Source: a virus | Taxonomy: Duplodnaviria; Heunggongvirae; Uroviricota; Caudoviricetes | Length of the DNA: 43,524 bases | IMG/VR virus record: IMGVR_UViG_2531839666_000032 | Direction: 5' to 3' (one strand) | In this document: one piece after another, positions 37,999-43,524 of the stretch | Layout of the letters: each line of letters starts with the position of its first letter | Numbering within the stretch: position 1 is the first letter of the stretch | Made by a program: the position numbers and the translations under genes | The notes under the pieces: generated by a model | What the model was told of the DNA's origin: nothing | The model's database searches: none | Seen by the model: the letters and a program-made list of their open reading frames with translations, nothing else

Positions 37999-38025
37999 CC
38001 CGGTCACCGTGCCGGGTTTTCTTTT
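37999..38025 (+). terminator. Rho-independent terminator after cI
   Basis: CCCGG-TCACCGTG-CCGGG hairpin followed by TTTTCTTTT. Confidence 0.6.
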
Positions 38026-38119
38026 GCCCTCCCCTCATCACACACACCGTTAAAAAAACCACCATAACCTCGCTTCAGTTATCGCTATGCGATTCAAGTC
38101 ACAAAATAAATCCATCCTA

Positions 38120-38196
38120 AATACAACCAGTTATATCTAAAACAACCAATAAAACAACTTTTGTTGTTGACGATAAAACAACTATAGTTTTAAATA
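38120..38196 (+). promoter_or_regulatory. oL/pL candidate: -35 TTGACG 38167-38172, -10 TTAAAT 38190-38195, overlapped by operator palindrome AACAAC-TTTT-GTTGTT at 38153-38168 and further AACAAC half-sites
   Basis: Read directly; same half-site family as in oR. Confidence 0.4.
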
Positions 38197-38388
38197 AGTT
38201 CATCGCAACAACACAACGATACGGCAACTACCTGATTCACCGTTGCGATGACCGCTTAGATCCGCAGTTTGAATTTCAGCAGGCTTCGGGGAGTGCGAGG
38301 GGTGAAACGGACGCGTGAACGTCGGTGTGACCAGCTGAAATTAACTCAACATTTCATACCTTAGTCGCTTCAACGAGGCGGCTTAGTT

Positions 38389-38679
38389 ATGACAACCGGC
38401 GGCCATCCACCGCCTGAATACGCGCAGAAGTCTCTATATGTTCAGCAGCCCAGCTTACGGGCAGGAGTTTTTATGGTTCATCAACATTATGGAACGCAGA
38501 CCGTTAATCGAGGTGCGGTCATGCCAGGAATGCTGGTCAAACACAAAGATGGTACCTGGACTGCATCAGCTAATTTACGCGGACGGCTTTATCTGCATCG
38601 CGGCATCGAGCGCACTTATACCCGTGATTTGCTCGTGGAAGTTTTTCTCGACGGACGCGGTAACGGCCTGAATCACTAA
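38389..38679 (+). CDS. Hypothetical protein (96 aa), first gene of the pL operon, in the position lambda kil occupies upstream of gam
   Basis: [73 protein letters not shown]; no family recognised; an alternative 77-aa frame overlaps. Confidence 0.4.
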
Positions 38680-38754
38680 TCCCCTTTCCTGTTTTCCTAA
38701 TCAGCCTGGCATTTCGCGGGCGATATTTTCACAGCCATTTTCAGGAGGTCAGCC

Positions 38755-39051
38755 ATGAACGCTTATTACATTCAGGATCGTCTTGAGGCTCAGAGCTGGG
38801 CGCGTCACTACCAGCAGATCGCCCGTGAAGAGAAAGAGGCAGAACTGGCAGACGACATGGAAAAAGGCCTGCCCCAGCACCTGTTTGAATCGCTATGCAT
38901 CGATCATTTGCAACGCCACGGGGCCAGCAAAAAAGCCATTACCCGTGCGTTTGATGACGATGTTGAGTTTCAGGAGCGCATGGCAGAACACATCCAGTAC
39001 ATGGTTGAAACCATTGCTCACCACCAGGTTGATATTGATTCAGAGGTATAA
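38755..39051 (+). CDS. gam: Gam, RecBCD inhibitor
   Basis: 98 aa [98 protein letters not shown]. Confidence 0.95.
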
Positions 39052-39056
39052 AACGG

Positions 39057-39842
39057 ATGAGTACAGCACTCGCAACGCTGGCAGGGAAGCTGGCTGAACG
39101 TGTCGGCATGGATTCTGTCGACCCACAGGAACTGATCACCACTCTTCGCCAGACGGCATTTAAAGGTGATGCCAGCGATGCGCAGTTCATCGCATTGTTG
39201 ATCGTCGCCAACCAGTACGGCCTTAATCCGTGGACGAAAGAAATTTACGCCTTCCCTGATAAGCAGAACGGCATCGTTCCGGTGGTGGGCGTTGATGGCT
39301 GGTCCCGCATCATCAATGAAAACCAGCAGTTTGATGGCATGGACTTTGAGCAGGACAATGAATCCTGTACATGCCGGATTTACCGCAAGGACCGTAATCA
39401 TCCGATCTGCGTTACCGAATGGATGGATGAATGCCGCCGCGAACCATTCAAAACTCGCGAAGGCAGAGAAATCACGGGGCCGTGGCAGTCGCATCCCAAA
39501 CGGATGTTACGGCATAAAGCCATGATTCAGTGTGCCCGTCTGGCCTTCGGATTTGCTGGTATCTATGACAAGGATGAAGCCGAGCGCATTGTCGAAAATA
39601 CTGCATACACTGCAGAACGTCAGCCAGAACGCGACATCACTCCGGTTAACGATGAAACCATGCAGGAGATTAACACTCTGCTGATCGCCCTGGATAAAAC
39701 ATGGGATGACGACTTATTGCCGCTCTGTTCCCAGATATTTCGCCGCGACATTCGCGCATCGTCAGAACTGACACAGGCCGAAGCAGTGAAAGCTCTTGGA
39801 TTCCTGAAACAGAAAGCCACTGAGCAGAAGGTGGCAGCATGA
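39057..39842 (+). CDS. bet: Bet (Red-beta) single-strand annealing protein
   Basis: 261 aa [89 protein letters not shown]. Confidence 0.95.
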
Positions 39843-40519
39843 CACCGGACATTATCCTGCAGCGTACCGGGATCGACGTGAGAGCTGTCGAACAGGGGGA
39901 TGATGCATGGCACAAATTACGGCTCGGCGTCATCACCGCTTCAGAAGTTCACAACGTGATAGCAAAGCCCCGCTCAGGAAAGAAGTGGCCTGACATGAAA
40001 ATGTCCTACTTCCACACCCTGCTGGCTGAGGTTTGCACCGGTGTGGCTCCGGAAGTTAATGCTAAGGCGCTGGCCTGGGGAAAACAGTACGAGAACGACG
40101 CCAGAACCCTGTTTGAATTCACTTCCGGCGTGAATGTTACTGAATCCCCGATCATCTATCGCGACGAAAGTATGCGCACCGCCTGCTCTCCCGATGGTTT
40201 ATGCAGTGACGGCAACGGCCTTGAACTGAAATGCCCGTTTACCTCCCGGGATTTCATGAAGTTCCGGCTCGGTGGTTTCGAGGCCATAAAATCGGCTTAC
40301 ATGGCCCAGGTGCAGTACAGCATGTGGGTGACGCGAAAAGATGCCTGGTACTTTGCCAACTATGACCCGCGTATGAAGCGTGAAGGCCTGCATTATGTCG
40401 TGATTGAGCGGAATGAAAAGTACATGGCGAATTTTGACGAGATGGTGCCGGAGTTCATCGAAAAAATGGACGTGGCACTGGCTGAAATTGGTTTTGTATT
40501 TGGGGAGCAATGGCGATGA
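39839..40519 (+). CDS. exo: Exo (Red-alpha) 5'-3' exonuclease
   Basis: 226 aa [94 protein letters not shown]. Confidence 0.95.
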
Positions 40520-40677
40520 AGCATCCTCACGATAATATCCGGGTAGGCGCGATCACTTTCATCTACTCCGTTACAAAGCGAGGCTGGGCATTTCCCGGCC
40601 TTTCTGTTATCAGAAATCCACTGAAAGCACAGCGGCTGGCTGAGGCGATAAATAATAAACGGGGGCTGTATGACTGA
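40510..40677 (+). CDS. orf60a-like small protein
   Basis: 55-aa [58 protein letters not shown] found by hand; overlaps the exo stop and the methyltransferase start. Confidence 0.6.
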
Positions 40678-41227
40678 TTTCACCGGAAGCAATACTCCTG
40701 CCGAACATCGCGACAGCTGGCGCACACCACCAGAGATTTTTGCTGCGCTTAATGCAGAGTTCGTTTTTCAACTTGATGCTGCCGCCAGCGAAAAAAACCG
40801 ACTATGTCGGCTTTTTATCTCACAGGAGCAGAACACATTAACCACTTCATGGCCTGAAGCAATGGGATATGCCTCTGGTTATGTCTGGTTGAATCCACCA
40901 TACAGCAATATTTCCCCTTTTGTGAAAAAGGCAGCCACTGAAAACAAATTCAGTAGTGTGGGATGTGTAATGTTATTGCCTGCTGACACATCTGTCGGAT
41001 GGTTTCATGAAGCGATACAAACCGCCAGTGAGGTCAGATTCATCACGGCAGGACGACTGGCATTTATTAACCCACTCACTGAGAAACCCGTCAGTGGAAA
41101 TAATAAAGGCTCGATGCTCATTATCTGGCACCCATACCCCCGTACACACTGCCACTTTACGACCGTTGATCGTGGAGAGTTGATGGCGTTCGGCTCAAGG
41201 ATTCTTGCCCGTCGGGAGGCTGCATGA
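40670..41227 (+). CDS. Orphan phage DNA N6-adenine methyltransferase
   Basis: 185 aa with catalytic motif IV NPPY (VWLNPPYSNISPFV); no adjacent restriction endonuclease gene. Confidence 0.8.
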   Translation: MTDFTGSNTPAEHRDSWRTPPEIFAALNAEFVFQLDAAASEKNRLCRLFISQEQNTLTTSWPEAMGYASGYVWLNPPYSNISPFVKKAATENKFSSVGCVMLLPADTSVGWFHEAIQTASEVRFITAGRLAFINPLTEKPVSGNNKGSMLIIWHPYPRTHCHFTTVDRGELMAFGSRILARREAA

Positions 41228-41307
41228 CAACCACGGAATGCATTTTTCTGGCAGCGGGCTTCATATTCTGTGTGCTTATGCTTGCCGACATGGGACTTGT
41301 TCAATGA
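41224..41307 (+). CDS. Putative 27-aa single-pass membrane micro-protein
   Basis: ORF MTTTECIFLAAGFIFCVLMLADMGLVQ found by hand; its ATG overlaps the methyltransferase stop (ATGA) and its stop overlaps the next ATG. Confidence 0.3.
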   Translation: MTTTECIFLAAGFIFCVLMLADMGLVQ

Positions 41308-41519
41308 CACATCAGCAGGAAAACGCCCTTCGCAGCATTGCCCGTCAGGCTAATTCTGAAATCAAAAAAGCCAGACAGCAGTTTCCGGATAAAAACGTCG
41401 ATGACATTTGCCGTAGCGTACTTAAGAAGCACCGCGAAACGGTAACGCTGATGGGATTCACACCGACTCATTTAAGCCTGGCGATCGGCATGTTAAACGG
41501 CGTCTTTAAGGAACGGTGA
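41304..41519 (+). CDS. Hypothetical protein (71 aa)
   Basis: MTHQQENALRSIARQANSEIKKARQQFPDKNVDDICRSVLKKHRETVTLMGFTPTHLSLAIGMLNGVFKER; followed by a terminator. Confidence 0.5.
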   Translation: MTHQQENALRSIARQANSEIKKARQQFPDKNVDDICRSVLKKHRETVTLMGFTPTHLSLAIGMLNGVFKER

Positions 41520-41540
41520 ACATGAAAAGCAAAATCATCA

Positions 41541-41563
41541 GGGAGCTACAGGCTCCTTTTTTA
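41541..41563 (+). terminator. Rho-independent terminator
   Basis: GGAGC-TACAG-GCTCC hairpin followed by TTTTTT. Confidence 0.55.
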
Positions 41564-41617
41564 TTGTTCGCATTCATCCTCAAGCGTATTAACCAACAAT
41601 TCAGGGATTAATGGAAG

Positions 41618-41836
41618 ATGGCAGACATCATTGATTCAGCATCAGAAATCGAAGAATTACAGCGCAATACAGCAATAAAAATGCGTCGTCAGAACTACCA
41701 GACTGTATCCGCAACTCATTGTTGTGAGTGTGGCGATCCGATAGATGAGCGAAGACGCCTGGCTGTTCAGGGTTGTCGGACTTGTGCAAGTTGCCAGGAG
41801 GAGATCGAACTTAAGAACAAACAATGGGGACTGTGA
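41618..41836 (+). CDS. TraR/DksA-family C4 zinc-finger protein (lambda orf73-like)
   Basis: 72 aa MADIIDSASEIEELQRNTAIKMRRQNYQTVSATHCCECGDPIDERRRLAVQGCRTCASCQEEIELKNKQWGL; CxxC...CxxC. Confidence 0.75.
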   Translation: MADIIDSASEIEELQRNTAIKMRRQNYQTVSATHCCECGDPIDERRRLAVQGCRTCASCQEEIELKNKQWGL

Positions 41837-41883
41837 TGGCCTCAAAGCAGCAAATTTCAACATCGTCCAACTGAGGTGTAAAA

Positions 41884-42162
41884 ATGTTCAGAATCATTTT
41901 TCCTAACACCTGGTACGTCGACCACCACGGCACTCCCTGCAAAATCCTGCGTTCTACCCACAACAAAGTTCACTACATCCGAAAAGGCAGAACATGTATC
42001 GCCAGCATGTTCCGCTTTAATCATGACTTTGAACCTGTGAATAAAGCTGATGCAGATCGGATAGCAGAAGAGATCGAAACGGCAGAACACATTAAGAAGT
42101 TACGTGACATGCGTTCAAAAAGCAGAGGTAACCATGGAATCATACAGCCTCACACTCGATGA
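41884..42162 (+). CDS. Hypothetical protein (92 aa)
   Basis: ORF MFRIIFPNTWYVDHHGTPCKILRSTHNKVHYIRKGRTCIASMFRFNHDFEPVNKADADRIAEEIETAEHIKKLRDMRSK with GAGGTG Shine-Dalgarno. Confidence 0.5.
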   Translation: MFRIIFPNTWYVDHHGTPCKILRSTHNKVHYIRKGRTCIASMFRFNHDFEPVNKADADRIAEEIETAEHIKKLRDMRSKSRGNHGIIQPHTR

Positions 42163-42505
42163 GGCCTGTCAGTTTCTTAAGATATCCAGACCAACCGCCA
42201 CCAACTGGATACGAACAGGCCGCCTACAGGCAACACGTAAAGATCCAACCAAGCCAAAATCTCCTTACCTCACAACACGGCAAGCCTGCATTGCGGCGCT
42301 TCAGTCTCCGCTGCATACTGTCCAGGTGAGCGCGGGTGATGGCATAACAGAGGAAAGAAAATGTCACTCTTCCGCAGAAATGAAATATGGTATGCCTCGT
42401 ATTCGCTCCCGGGCGGGAAACGAATTAAGGAATCTCTTGGCACAAAGGACAAGCGGCAAGCTCAGGAGTTGCACGACAAGCGAAAAGCAGAACTCTGGCG
42501 AGTAG
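42134..42505 (+). CDS. xis: Excisionase-like protein (AlpA/Xis-type HTH); the frame runs about 145 nt into int
   Basis: [38 protein letters not shown]...; position just upstream of int; true C-terminus uncertain. Confidence 0.5.
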
Positions 42506-43524
42506 AAAAGCTAGGGGATTTACCTGATGTCACTTTTGAAGAGGCCTGCCTAAGATGGCTTGAGGAAAAAGCTGATAAAAAATCTCTCGATTCAGATAAA
42601 AGCCGGATTGAGTTCTGGCTTGAACATTTTGAGGGTATAAGGCTTAAAGATATCTCGGAGGCAAAGATTTACTCTGCTGTAAGCAGAATGCATAACAGAA
42701 AGACGAAAGAAATATGGAAACAGAAAGTTCAGGCCGCCATCAGGAAAGGTAAAGAACCGCCTGTTTATGAACCAAAGCCAGTATCAACTCAGACAAAGGC
42801 AAAGCATCTTGCCATGATAAAGGCCATTCTCCGTGCTGCAGAACGCGACTGGAAGTGGCTGGAAAAAGCGCCTGTCATCAAGATACCAGCGGTCAGAAAC
42901 AAGCGAGTCAGATGGCTGGAAAAGGAGGAAGCAAAACGCCTTATTGATGAGTGCCCCGAACCACTGAAATCTGTCGTCAAGTTTGCGCTGGCAACTGGTC
43001 TGAGAAAGTCGAACATCATAAATCTGGAATGGCAACAAATCGACATGCAGCGACGAGTTGCCTGGGTGAATCCAGAAGAGAGCAAATCAAACCGCGCCAT
43101 TGGTGTGGCGCTGAACGATACCGCCTGTAAAGTGTTGCGTGATCAAATAGGCAAGCATCACAAATGGGTGTTTGTACATACCAAGGCGGCTAAGCGAGCA
43201 GATGGAACATCAACGCCTGCGGTCAGGAAGATGCGCATCGACAGCAAGACATCATGGCTATCAGCTTGTCGTCGTGCAGGAATTGAAGATTTCCGTTTCC
43301 ATGACCTCAGACACACCTGGGCAAGCTGGCTGATTCAGTCAGGCGTCCCATTATCAGTGCTTCAGGAAATGGGCGGATGGGAGTCCATAGAAATGGTTCG
43401 TAGGTATGCTCACCTTGCGCCTAATCATTTGACAGAGCATGCGAGGAAAATAGACGACATTTTTGGTGATAATGTCCCAAATATGTCCCACTCTGGAATT
43501 ATGGAGGATATAAAGAAGGCGTAA
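42361..43524 (+). CDS. intD: Tyrosine integrase of the DLP12 IntD type
   Basis: 387 aa [53 protein letters not shown]...; catalytic-region motifs [11 protein letters not shown] and VRRYAHL; stop at the window end. Confidence 0.95.

Follow-up and report, generated by a model that had tools for sequence, protein, structure and literature searches.

A constrained 27-codon reading frame beneath the annotated start of orf61, and its putative tie to an exchangeable DNA-modification slot within the exo-xis segment of lambdoid prophages

Introduction

Early transcription of the left operon of bacteriophage lambda is driven by pL and the N protein. The promoter-distal part of this operon, named the exo-xis region in the literature devoted to it, has been heavily studied in lambda and in Shiga toxin (Stx) phages by deletion, overexpression and modelling, and deletions of one of its genes, orf61, were found to raise lysogenisation and host survival after infection. 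Here we report that this work was apparently done with a wrong gene model. The DNA analysed is a stretch of 43,524 nucleotides (nt) from IMG/VR record IMGVR_UViG_2531839666_000032, called the window throughout, and the segment of interest is, judged by its gene content, the exo-xis region of a lambdoid prophage. In this segment, a Dam-family methyltransferase gene is followed by a 27-codon open reading frame (the micro-ORF) and by a 71-codon ORF. The methylase and the operon context had been annotated already, and the family of the 71-amino-acid (aa) protein was known. What is new is comparative evidence, of good quality, for an overlooked 27-aa gene that lambda carries too, a corrected gene model for Orf61, and a link between Orf61-like genes and DNA modification.

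Results

The peptide encoded by the micro-ORF, MTTTECIFLAAGFIFCVLMLADMGLVQ, is identical in lambda (NC_001416, 30925-31008, complement), 2851, 434, 933W and VT2-Sakai. The micro-ORF was present in 175 phage records, 138 of them with an identical sequence, and was annotated in none of the phage records inspected. An exact look-up in the protein collection returned the peptide only as 'hypothetical/uncharacterized protein', and neither the peptide nor its UniProt id turned up in a full-text literature search. Two 428-aa members of the peptide's protein cluster were unrelated clustering artefacts and were set aside.

Coding constraint was measured on 179 ungapped homologous loci, which reduced to 81 distinct haplotypes, and each minor allele at each polymorphic site was classed as synonymous or nonsynonymous in every frame. 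The micro-ORF frame displayed 15 synonymous and 11 nonsynonymous changes at an expected synonymous fraction of 0.25 (omega ~0.24, binomial p=3.9e-4); 16 of the 26 changes fell at codon position 3, and each of the five variants shared by four or more haplotypes was synonymous. Orf61 proper gave 25 synonymous and 21 nonsynonymous changes (omega ~0.28, p=2.4e-5), whereas the frame of the annotated 93-aa extension gave 5 and 14 over the overlap (omega ~1.0, p=0.61, not significant), and omega ranged from 0.9 to 1.8 in the alternative frames over the micro-ORF. The micro-ORF is constrained as strongly as Orf61, and the annotated frame that overlaps it is unconstrained. The test is conservative, because singleton sequencing errors would raise the nonsynonymous count. 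An earlier note on the window, made from its letters alone, had proposed conservation of the micro-ORF frame in homologous prophages as a check, and both the 175 phage records and the 3-periodic substitutions across the 81 haplotypes bear it out. The note had overlooked the presence of the micro-ORF in lambda and the 93-aa 'orf61/ZapA' annotation that overprints it.

A GGGAGG Shine-Dalgarno (SD) sequence stands 5 nt before the ATG of the micro-ORF. The peptide is hydrophobic at residues ~6-26 (mean Kyte-Doolittle value 1.62, with a 19-residue window of up to 2.33) and is predicted to be a single-helix membrane micro-protein. The micro-ORF and orf61 share their first six bases, ATGACA, and have similar N-termini (MTTTE at 41224-41238 versus MTHQQE at 41304-41321), a hint that the start of the micro-ORF may derive from the initiation region of orf61, through duplication or recombination there.

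The 71-aa protein, to which the earlier note had assigned no recognisable family, is by alignment lambda Orf61 (phrog_303) in its full-length form, a member of a functionally obscure family of ~70-aa three-helix proteins. With the last 71 residues of the 93-aa Stx-phage 'orf61' it shares 96-99% identity, and it is 98.6% identical to the Stx-phage and 434 proteins. An exhaustive HMMER search recovered ~20 distant homologues of 69-78 aa (32-48% identical, aligned end to end), all of which begin at the position of the 71-aa ATG and none of which has the 22-codon extension. The same ATG, with its own GAGG SD sequence and without extension, is found in an E. coli variant (L004) in which another cassette abuts orf61. 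In the window, no SD sequence precedes the Orf61 ATG; a strong SD sequence at the micro-ORF and none at orf61 would fit termination-reinitiation coupling. The start codon is polymorphic (ATG/GTG, nine haplotypes), and both forms are start codons. An AlphaFold model of Orf61 based on the homologue alignment reached a predicted local distance difference test (pLDDT) score of 89.9, with helices at residues 3-26, 32-49 and 54-64.

The 22-codon N-terminal extension (41238..41303, + strand) of the 93-aa RefSeq 'orf61 / cell division protein ZapA' was rejected. It reads over the micro-ORF in another frame, and no SD sequence precedes position 41238. In the exo-xis literature, residues 1-23 of the 93-aa Orf61 were modelled inconsistently, and the overexpressed long form gave insoluble aggregates. 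That literature calls the lambda Orf61 only 'truncated'. Alignment accounts for the lambda form by a run of A within orf61, which has 7 A in reference lambda (NC_001416, ~30860) and in the lambda-derived J02459, DE3-type, imm21 and O276, and 6 A in the window, the Stx phages, 434 and the other lambdoid isolates compared. The extra A frameshifts orf61 in lambda and makes the annotated 61-aa lambda orf61 a chimera of an out-of-frame upstream start, 22 true codons and a frameshifted tail; tblastn with Orf61 breaks the lambda-derived records into two pieces.

The identity with ZapA given by the PGAP name was also rejected: the PF05164 score of 15.2 bits (E=0.028, across 32 residues) falls short of the 23.8 cutoff, there was no NCBIfam match, and no ZapA-like fold was found for the predicted Orf61 structure. 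The name (e.g., NC_049943, L002:2974-3255) appears to be an error of annotation, by now copied into thousands of E. coli records. Residues ~40-65 of Orf61, centred on GFTPTHLSLAIGMLNG, gave weak ankyrin-repeat matches (PDB 5y4d, E=3e-4), and several long multi-repeat proteins also matched this region weakly in a representative search.

Upstream of the micro-ORF, the methyltransferase matched PF05869 with 190.5 bits (cutoff 28.1; profile positions 1-168 of 169 covered) and the TIGR01712 equivalog with 165.6 bits (cutoff 97.05). Its catalytic NPPY motif is read in the translation at residues ~75-78 (WLNPPYSN) and is kept in an orthologue from an Enterobacter cloacae prophage, which is 75% identical and is coupled directly to an orf61-like gene. 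Identity was 46% to the Dam encoded in the nin region of 434 and the Stx phages, ~45% to enzymes of T1-like phages and 39% to that of HP1. The flanking genes, all small exo-xis genes (DUF1317, the 27-aa ORF, Orf61 and the TraR-like gene), include no nuclease gene, and the window holds no second Dam-family gene. Going by these profile matches and neighbours, the enzyme is an orphan Dam-family N6-adenine methyltransferase, in agreement with the earlier note, which had read it as an orphan enzyme with an NPPY motif.

A search of PDB sequences found no solved structure of any relative of the methyltransferase. A shared family with the non-specific adenine methylases Hia5/Hin1523 was dropped, as the paper in question offered no support. 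M.EcoVT2Dam, which the nin-region relatives matched here appear to represent, was reported to target GATC (PMC6602927), and by analogy with this nearest characterised relative the target of the window enzyme is probably GATC as well. GATC occurs 109 times in the whole window against 197 expected under a maximal-order Markov model (observed/expected 0.55), and CTAG and GGCC are likewise under-represented. The shortage of GATC is a general lambdoid trait and carries no information on the target of the methylase.

The position of the methyltransferase is that of an exchangeable cassette. Four of the five genes of the exo-xis block are found in order in the window (exo, DUF1317, Orf61 and TraR-like), with the integrase at 42361; orf63 (DUF1382) is absent, and alignment with phage 2851 places the methylase where orf63 would be. 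Among phage records, the same arrangement was found only in PhiR30_1 (99.7% identity), and ~175 other lambdoid and Stx phages match both flanks but hold orf63 at this position. Of 5,426 complete E. coli genomes, 244 had it as well (a query that crosses both junctions was matched over at least 80%), and in these PGAP names the gene 'phage N-6-adenine-methyltransferase'; with this frequency, the methylase is ordinary. In a three-way alignment, homology to phage 2851 is lost at column ~186, which sets the left breakpoint within the final orf60a codons (~40664-40670), and these codons therefore differ from lambda; the right one coincides exactly with GCATGA, where the micro-ORF starts. The conserved REAA-stop/GCATGAC junction sits directly before orf61-like genes in relatives.

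Non-homologous methylases share a C-terminal tail, (K/R)(T/R)EAA, followed by GGAGGC-GCATGAC; the junctions that display it are those of the window (41208-41228) and of loci L209, L212, L215, L220, L222, L228-L233 and L236. This boundary looks like a linker through which recombination could exchange cassettes. Klebsiella phage 2b LV-2017 has this tail, too, at the end of a non-methylase ORF of 183 aa, which lies upstream of an inserted C5 methylase. In ~200 E. coli-type loci, the slot held orf63 (~170), a Dam-family methylase (16) or a 250-aa phrog_887 protein (11), which accords with the suggestion of the earlier note that this is a variable accessory site of lambda. The third cargo, a phrog_887 'queuine tRNA-ribosyltransferase' (E=4e-99, without Pfam match), occurs in loci that lack the micro-ORF and is a DpdA-like candidate for 7-deazaguanine DNA modification. 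It is located at L004:1741-2493 and L215:1088-1840, and in L215 a split MT-A70 methylase follows it.

Hydrophobic micro-ORFs recur before Orf61-like genes in other lineages. In Yersinia phage vB_YenM_06.16-1, the stop codon of a D12-class methylase is overlapped through ATGA by an ORF of 31 codons (MKRKISDGAWFWIYLIGYTVAATLYIVSNAG), which stops 3 nt before the GTG of the Orf61-like gene. In three IMG/VR contigs, a hydrophobic ORF of 34-36 codons exactly occupies the gap before the Orf61-like gene; an ATGA overlap joins the micro-ORF to the stop of the gene before it in L217 and L218 but not in L216. L216 and L217 have Orf61-like proteins of ~88% identity, yet their micro-peptides agree at only 13 of 36 residues, with length and hydrophobicity kept. 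Every gap of at least 80 nt observed before an Orf61-like gene is a hydrophobic micro-ORF, and elsewhere the upstream gene overlaps directly. The recurrence of non-homologous hydrophobic micro-ORFs supports the pairing of a small membrane protein with Orf61, strengthens the suggestion of the earlier note that the two could be a membrane effector and its partner, and argues against a mere spacer.

In diverged phages, DNA methyltransferases of several classes were found directly upstream of Orf61-like genes: an MT-A70 methylase in Klebsiella phage Mulock, Kp4862-1 and L215, a C5 methylase in Klebsiella phage 2b LV-2017, a phrog_757 methylase in RCIP0034, a C5+Dam fusion in CobraSix and the D12 methylase in Yersinia phage vB_YenM_06.16-1. 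A prophage scan with one genome per species and one Orf61-like subfamily as the query gave 18 loci from Raoultella, Kosakonia, Citrobacter, Enterobacter and related genera, 17 of which were usable. A methyltransferase lay directly upstream of the Orf61-like gene in 16 of the 17, a share that overstates the frequency in the whole family because the query subfamily was picked from methylase-linked members. The classes, which overlap as fusions were counted, were MT-A70 (7), C5 (5), Dam (4), N6_N4 (2), D12 (1) and a phrog_757-type enzyme without Pfam match (1). Most of the pairs scanned are joined by ATGA behind the conserved GGAGGC-GCATGAC. At the remaining locus (L223:2205-2501), a DUF4406 protein lies upstream of the orf61-like gene, and there may be a frame-disrupted MT-A70-like remnant further upstream.

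Orf61 members of the Vibrio, Erwinia and lambda types have other upstream neighbours. Alignments of diverse Orf61 proteins were too variable to find loci, and single distant queries yielded few. At a minimum, the gene arrangements suggest that the slot is a dedicated, early-expressed DNA-modification site with orf61 as its right-hand anchor. The diversity of the modification enzymes it holds (MT-A70, C5, D12, N6_N4, Dam and DpdA-like), drawn from no fewer than five unrelated families, lends indirect support to the anti-restriction function that the earlier note had proposed.

The overlaps between successive genes, read from the sequence, were 10 (or 4), 8, 4, 4 and 4 nt. The earlier note had described four ORFs chained by ATGA overlaps and closed by one terminator. 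Positions, chaining, and the hairpin with its T-run were as described, except that the orf60a/methyltransferase junction (ATGACTGA) is an 8-nt overlap and hence not strictly ATGA, and that a fifth coupled ORF, of 31 aa, had been missed. The exo stop overlaps the orf60a start (ATGGCGATGA) by 10 nt, or by 4 nt from a second ATG; the methyltransferase/micro-ORF and micro-ORF/71-aa junctions are both true ATGA overlaps; and the 31-aa ORF is joined to the stop of the 71-aa ORF through GTGA and runs across the terminator. Its start codon is GTG in the window and ATG in 28 of the 81 haplotypes, among which no coding constraint was detected in this frame (6 synonymous and 14 nonsynonymous changes, omega ~0.7, not significant). 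It probably corresponds to the ORF of 31 aa for which translation in lambda has been reported (PMC8614690, citing Liu 2013).

The remaining features of the segment are listed in Table 1. From 39057 to 43524, the order on the + strand is bet, exo, orf60a-like, methyltransferase, 27-codon ORF, 71-codon ORF, TraR-like, DUF4222, excisionase-like and integrase; exo is the final gene before the cluster.

Table 1. Annotated positions in the exo-xis segment of the window
Feature	Position	Strand	Basis or remark
bet	39057-39842	+	
exo, lambda exonuclease homologue	39839..40519	+	Pfam YqaJ, E=5.6e-30; annotated exonuclease in PhiR30_1 and phage 2851
orf60a-like (DUF1317), 55 aa	40510..40677	+	PF07026, E=4.4e-31; phrog_1998
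Hairpin in orf60a coding sequence	40580..40602	+	9 pairs, 6 GC; predicted terminator 't1'
Dam-family N6-adenine methyltransferase, 185 aa	40670..41227	+	PF05869, TIGR01712, phrog_111
Shine-Dalgarno GGGAGG and right cassette boundary (REAA-stop / GCATGAC)	41208..41223	+	
Micro-ORF, 27 aa, hydrophobic	41224..41307	+	Coding constraint; identical peptide in lambda
Orf61, 71 aa	41304..41519	+	phrog_303, E=1.3e-35
Run of 6 A in orf61	41364..41369	+	Reference lambda has 7 A (alignment)
Small ORF, 31 aa (MNMKSKIIRELQ...; full MNMKSKIIRELQAPFLLFAFILKRINQQFRD)	41516..41611	+	GTGA overlap with orf61 stop
Terminator-like hairpin and T-run	hairpin 41540-41558, with T-run to 41564	+	Matches predicted 't2', between orf61 and orf73
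TraR/DksA-type zinc-finger gene, lambda Orf73 homologue	41618..41836	+	PF01258, E=2.7e-9; phage annotations
Integrase	42361 to window end	+	

The terminator-like hairpin has an 8-bp stem and a 3-nt loop followed by T6 and folds at -11.1 kcal/mol (z=-2.3). An N-modified polymerase is expected to pass through this site. The hairpin matches the predicted 't2' of Bloch 2014, past which the lambda mRNA level drops (PMC4195576), and this published drop at the homologous lambda site supports, by analogy, a terminator function for 41540-41564. The hairpin within orf60a matches in sequence the predicted 't1' of the exo-xis literature (PMC4195576); its loop displays a U-to-C difference relative to lambda and 2851. 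Three promoter-like sites were found against 3.8 expected from shuffled sequence, and none lies across the micro-ORF. The first gene beyond the terminator is the lambda Orf73 homologue, of TraR/DksA type (PMC9239242).

Discussion

We favour a reading in which a cassette swap in the exo-xis region, early self-protective methylation and a coupled pair of membrane micro-protein and Orf61 are combined, and we consider it, taken as a whole, about 70% likely. Recombination between conserved gene-boundary sequences would have exchanged lambda orf63 and the last orf60a codons for a Dam-family cassette such as Enterobacter prophages carry, the right joint being the shared 'REAA-stop/GGAGGC-GCATGAC'. 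By this swap, the lambda-type 27-codon ORF would now be driven by a strong ribosome-binding site whose usual place is before an orf61-like gene. After infection or induction, N-antiterminated transcription from pL would yield the methylase early, and the enzyme would modify replicating phage DNA and shield it from restriction; lambda DNA was reported to be only about half Dam-methylated (PMC3299994). Ribosomes ending the methylase would re-initiate at ATGA and make the 27-residue hydrophobic peptide, which would enter the inner membrane; those ending the micro-ORF would start anew at the second ATGA and yield Orf61, with its 71 aa and three helices. The micro-protein and Orf61 would act as a functional pair, which would explain the 'pro-lytic' phenotypes ascribed to orf61 deletions. 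These phenotypes may partly belong to the micro-gene, because the deletions remove the micro-ORF and the lambda orf61 is frameshifted.

Several points weigh against this explanation. The polymorphism sample is closely related (at least 95% identical), and its alleles were counted per site and not on a tree. The 27-aa peptide, with a net charge of -2, lacks basic residues, an uncommon trait in a membrane anchor, and both its translation and its membrane location are deduced from sequence. The methylase target is taken from a relative that is 46% identical, and since the host has a Dam of its own, methylating GATC would in part be redundant. Secondary sources on lambda (PMC8614690) mention only new ORFs of 7 and 31 aa here. 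The micro-ORF is also dispensable in a good number of lineages, being absent from all 17 enterobacterial prophage loci and from the DpdA-type E. coli variant.

The methylase linkage allows a broader and more tentative proposal, which we think unlikely to be right: the Orf61 family would be a companion of phage DNA-modification enzymes regardless of the enzyme family, its genes being coupled in translation to the 3' end of the enzyme gene, with the micro-protein as a third component in some cases. Orf61 may then act on a common consequence of modification, for example by blocking type IV restriction or by timing the modification, and would not be a generic 'pro-lytic regulator'. If this is true, the published phenotypes of orf61 deletions would stem partly or wholly from loss of the hidden micro-gene.

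Self-protection by the methyltransferase has to be set against a chiefly epigenetic role, in the regulation of host or phage genes, or one within a restriction-modification system. Transcription can be under the control of orphan Dam-type enzymes, and the scarcity of GATC in the window could be taken in the same sense. However, no nuclease gene adjoins the methyltransferase, and the enzymes of the slot are interchangeable although they would yield N6-methyladenine (several classes), 5-methylcytosine or, for the transglycosylase, a 7-deazaguanine-type product. What such chemically different enzymes share is DNA protection and not one regulatory motif, and we regard the regulatory or restriction-modification role as improbable.

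A second possibility, improbable to a like degree, is that the micro-ORF is a bridge that passes ribosomes on to orf61 and that its peptide has no function. It has ATGA overlaps at both ends, orf61 lacks an SD sequence of its own, lineages without a micro-ORF couple the methylase straight to orf61-like genes, and the micro-peptides of different lineages are unrelated, that of L216 diverging even from that of L217. A bridge does not account for purifying selection on the peptide as strong as that on Orf61. Three independent micro-ORFs are all strongly hydrophobic and of helix length, which a spacer need not be, and spacer-free ATGA coupling works elsewhere.

We give still less weight to the view of the micro-ORF and Orf61 as a toxin/antidote-like or exclusion module, in which a membrane-damaging peptide is neutralised or regulated by Orf61; such a module, which we judge very unlikely, would serve host killing, superinfection exclusion or abortive infection. 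The hydrophobic 27-36-aa size is typical of small membrane toxins, the coupling to a small soluble protein is tight, and the deletions of orf61 that raise host survival after infection also lose the micro-ORF. Yet no Rfam match (E no higher than 0.1) and no antisense RNA were found in 38000-43524, promoter-like sites were not above chance, the peptide has no charged tail of the kind usual in type I toxins, and Orf61-like genes are common without any micro-ORF. We can attach almost no credence to the database annotation, with Orf61 as a 93-aa protein from 41238 and the 27-codon frame as a chance overlap: RefSeq/PGAP and the exo-xis literature use this form and phrog_303 spans the extension, but the extension frame is unconstrained next to that of the micro-ORF (omega ~1.0 versus 0.24), is missing from every distant homologue and from L004, has no SD sequence, and encodes the very residues on which structure predictors disagree in a long form that proved insoluble.

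Under the favoured reading of a micro-protein paired with Orf61, and provided that the 27-aa gene is real, constructs of Orf61 should begin 22 codons later, which may explain the earlier insoluble protein. Deletions of 'orf61' would have taken out two genes, and reference lambda would carry an intact micro-gene beside a frameshifted orf61. The linkage between Orf61-like genes and modification enzymes, which does not depend on the enzyme family, would be the first testable functional handle on the Orf61 family, and it also marks what is, on the gene order, a dedicated early DNA-modification slot in enterobacterial temperate phages.

Among known systems, the type I toxin peptides (the Hok, Ldr, TisB and Ibs classes) resemble the micro-ORF product in being short, hydrophobic and borne on a mobile element. 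In contrast to type I toxin-antitoxin systems, the micro-ORF was found without an antisense RNA, an Rfam match or a promoter of its own, and it lies inside a polycistronic early operon, coupled to a downstream protein gene. The small membrane proteins of bacteria and phages, with fewer than 50 aa and mostly known from ribosome profiling, are similar in length, in their single hydrophobic helix, in operon coupling and in having been missed by annotation; the peptide described here differs from them in lacking basic residues and in being hidden under an annotated ORF of another frame. The methyltransferase is like phage Dam-family enzymes such as M.EcoVT2Dam, with a full-length match, the NPPY motif, no partner nuclease and a place on a prophage, but it shares only ~46% identity with the nin-region enzymes and is located in the early left operon and not in the nin region.

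The closest system is the exo-xis region carried by lambda and the Stx phages (orf60a-orf63-orf61-orf73-ea22), described by the Wegrzyn and Donaldson laboratories. The window shares its gene order, its 't2' and, by prediction, its transcription from pL; nucleotide identity is 95-98% across orf60a, orf61 and the DNA between genes, and the micro-ORF peptide is the same. It differs in holding a methyltransferase in place of orf63 (DUF1382), and in a gene model that comprises a 27-aa gene and a 71-aa Orf61 where a 93-aa protein (Stx phages) or a frameshifted 61-aa protein (lambda) has been annotated.

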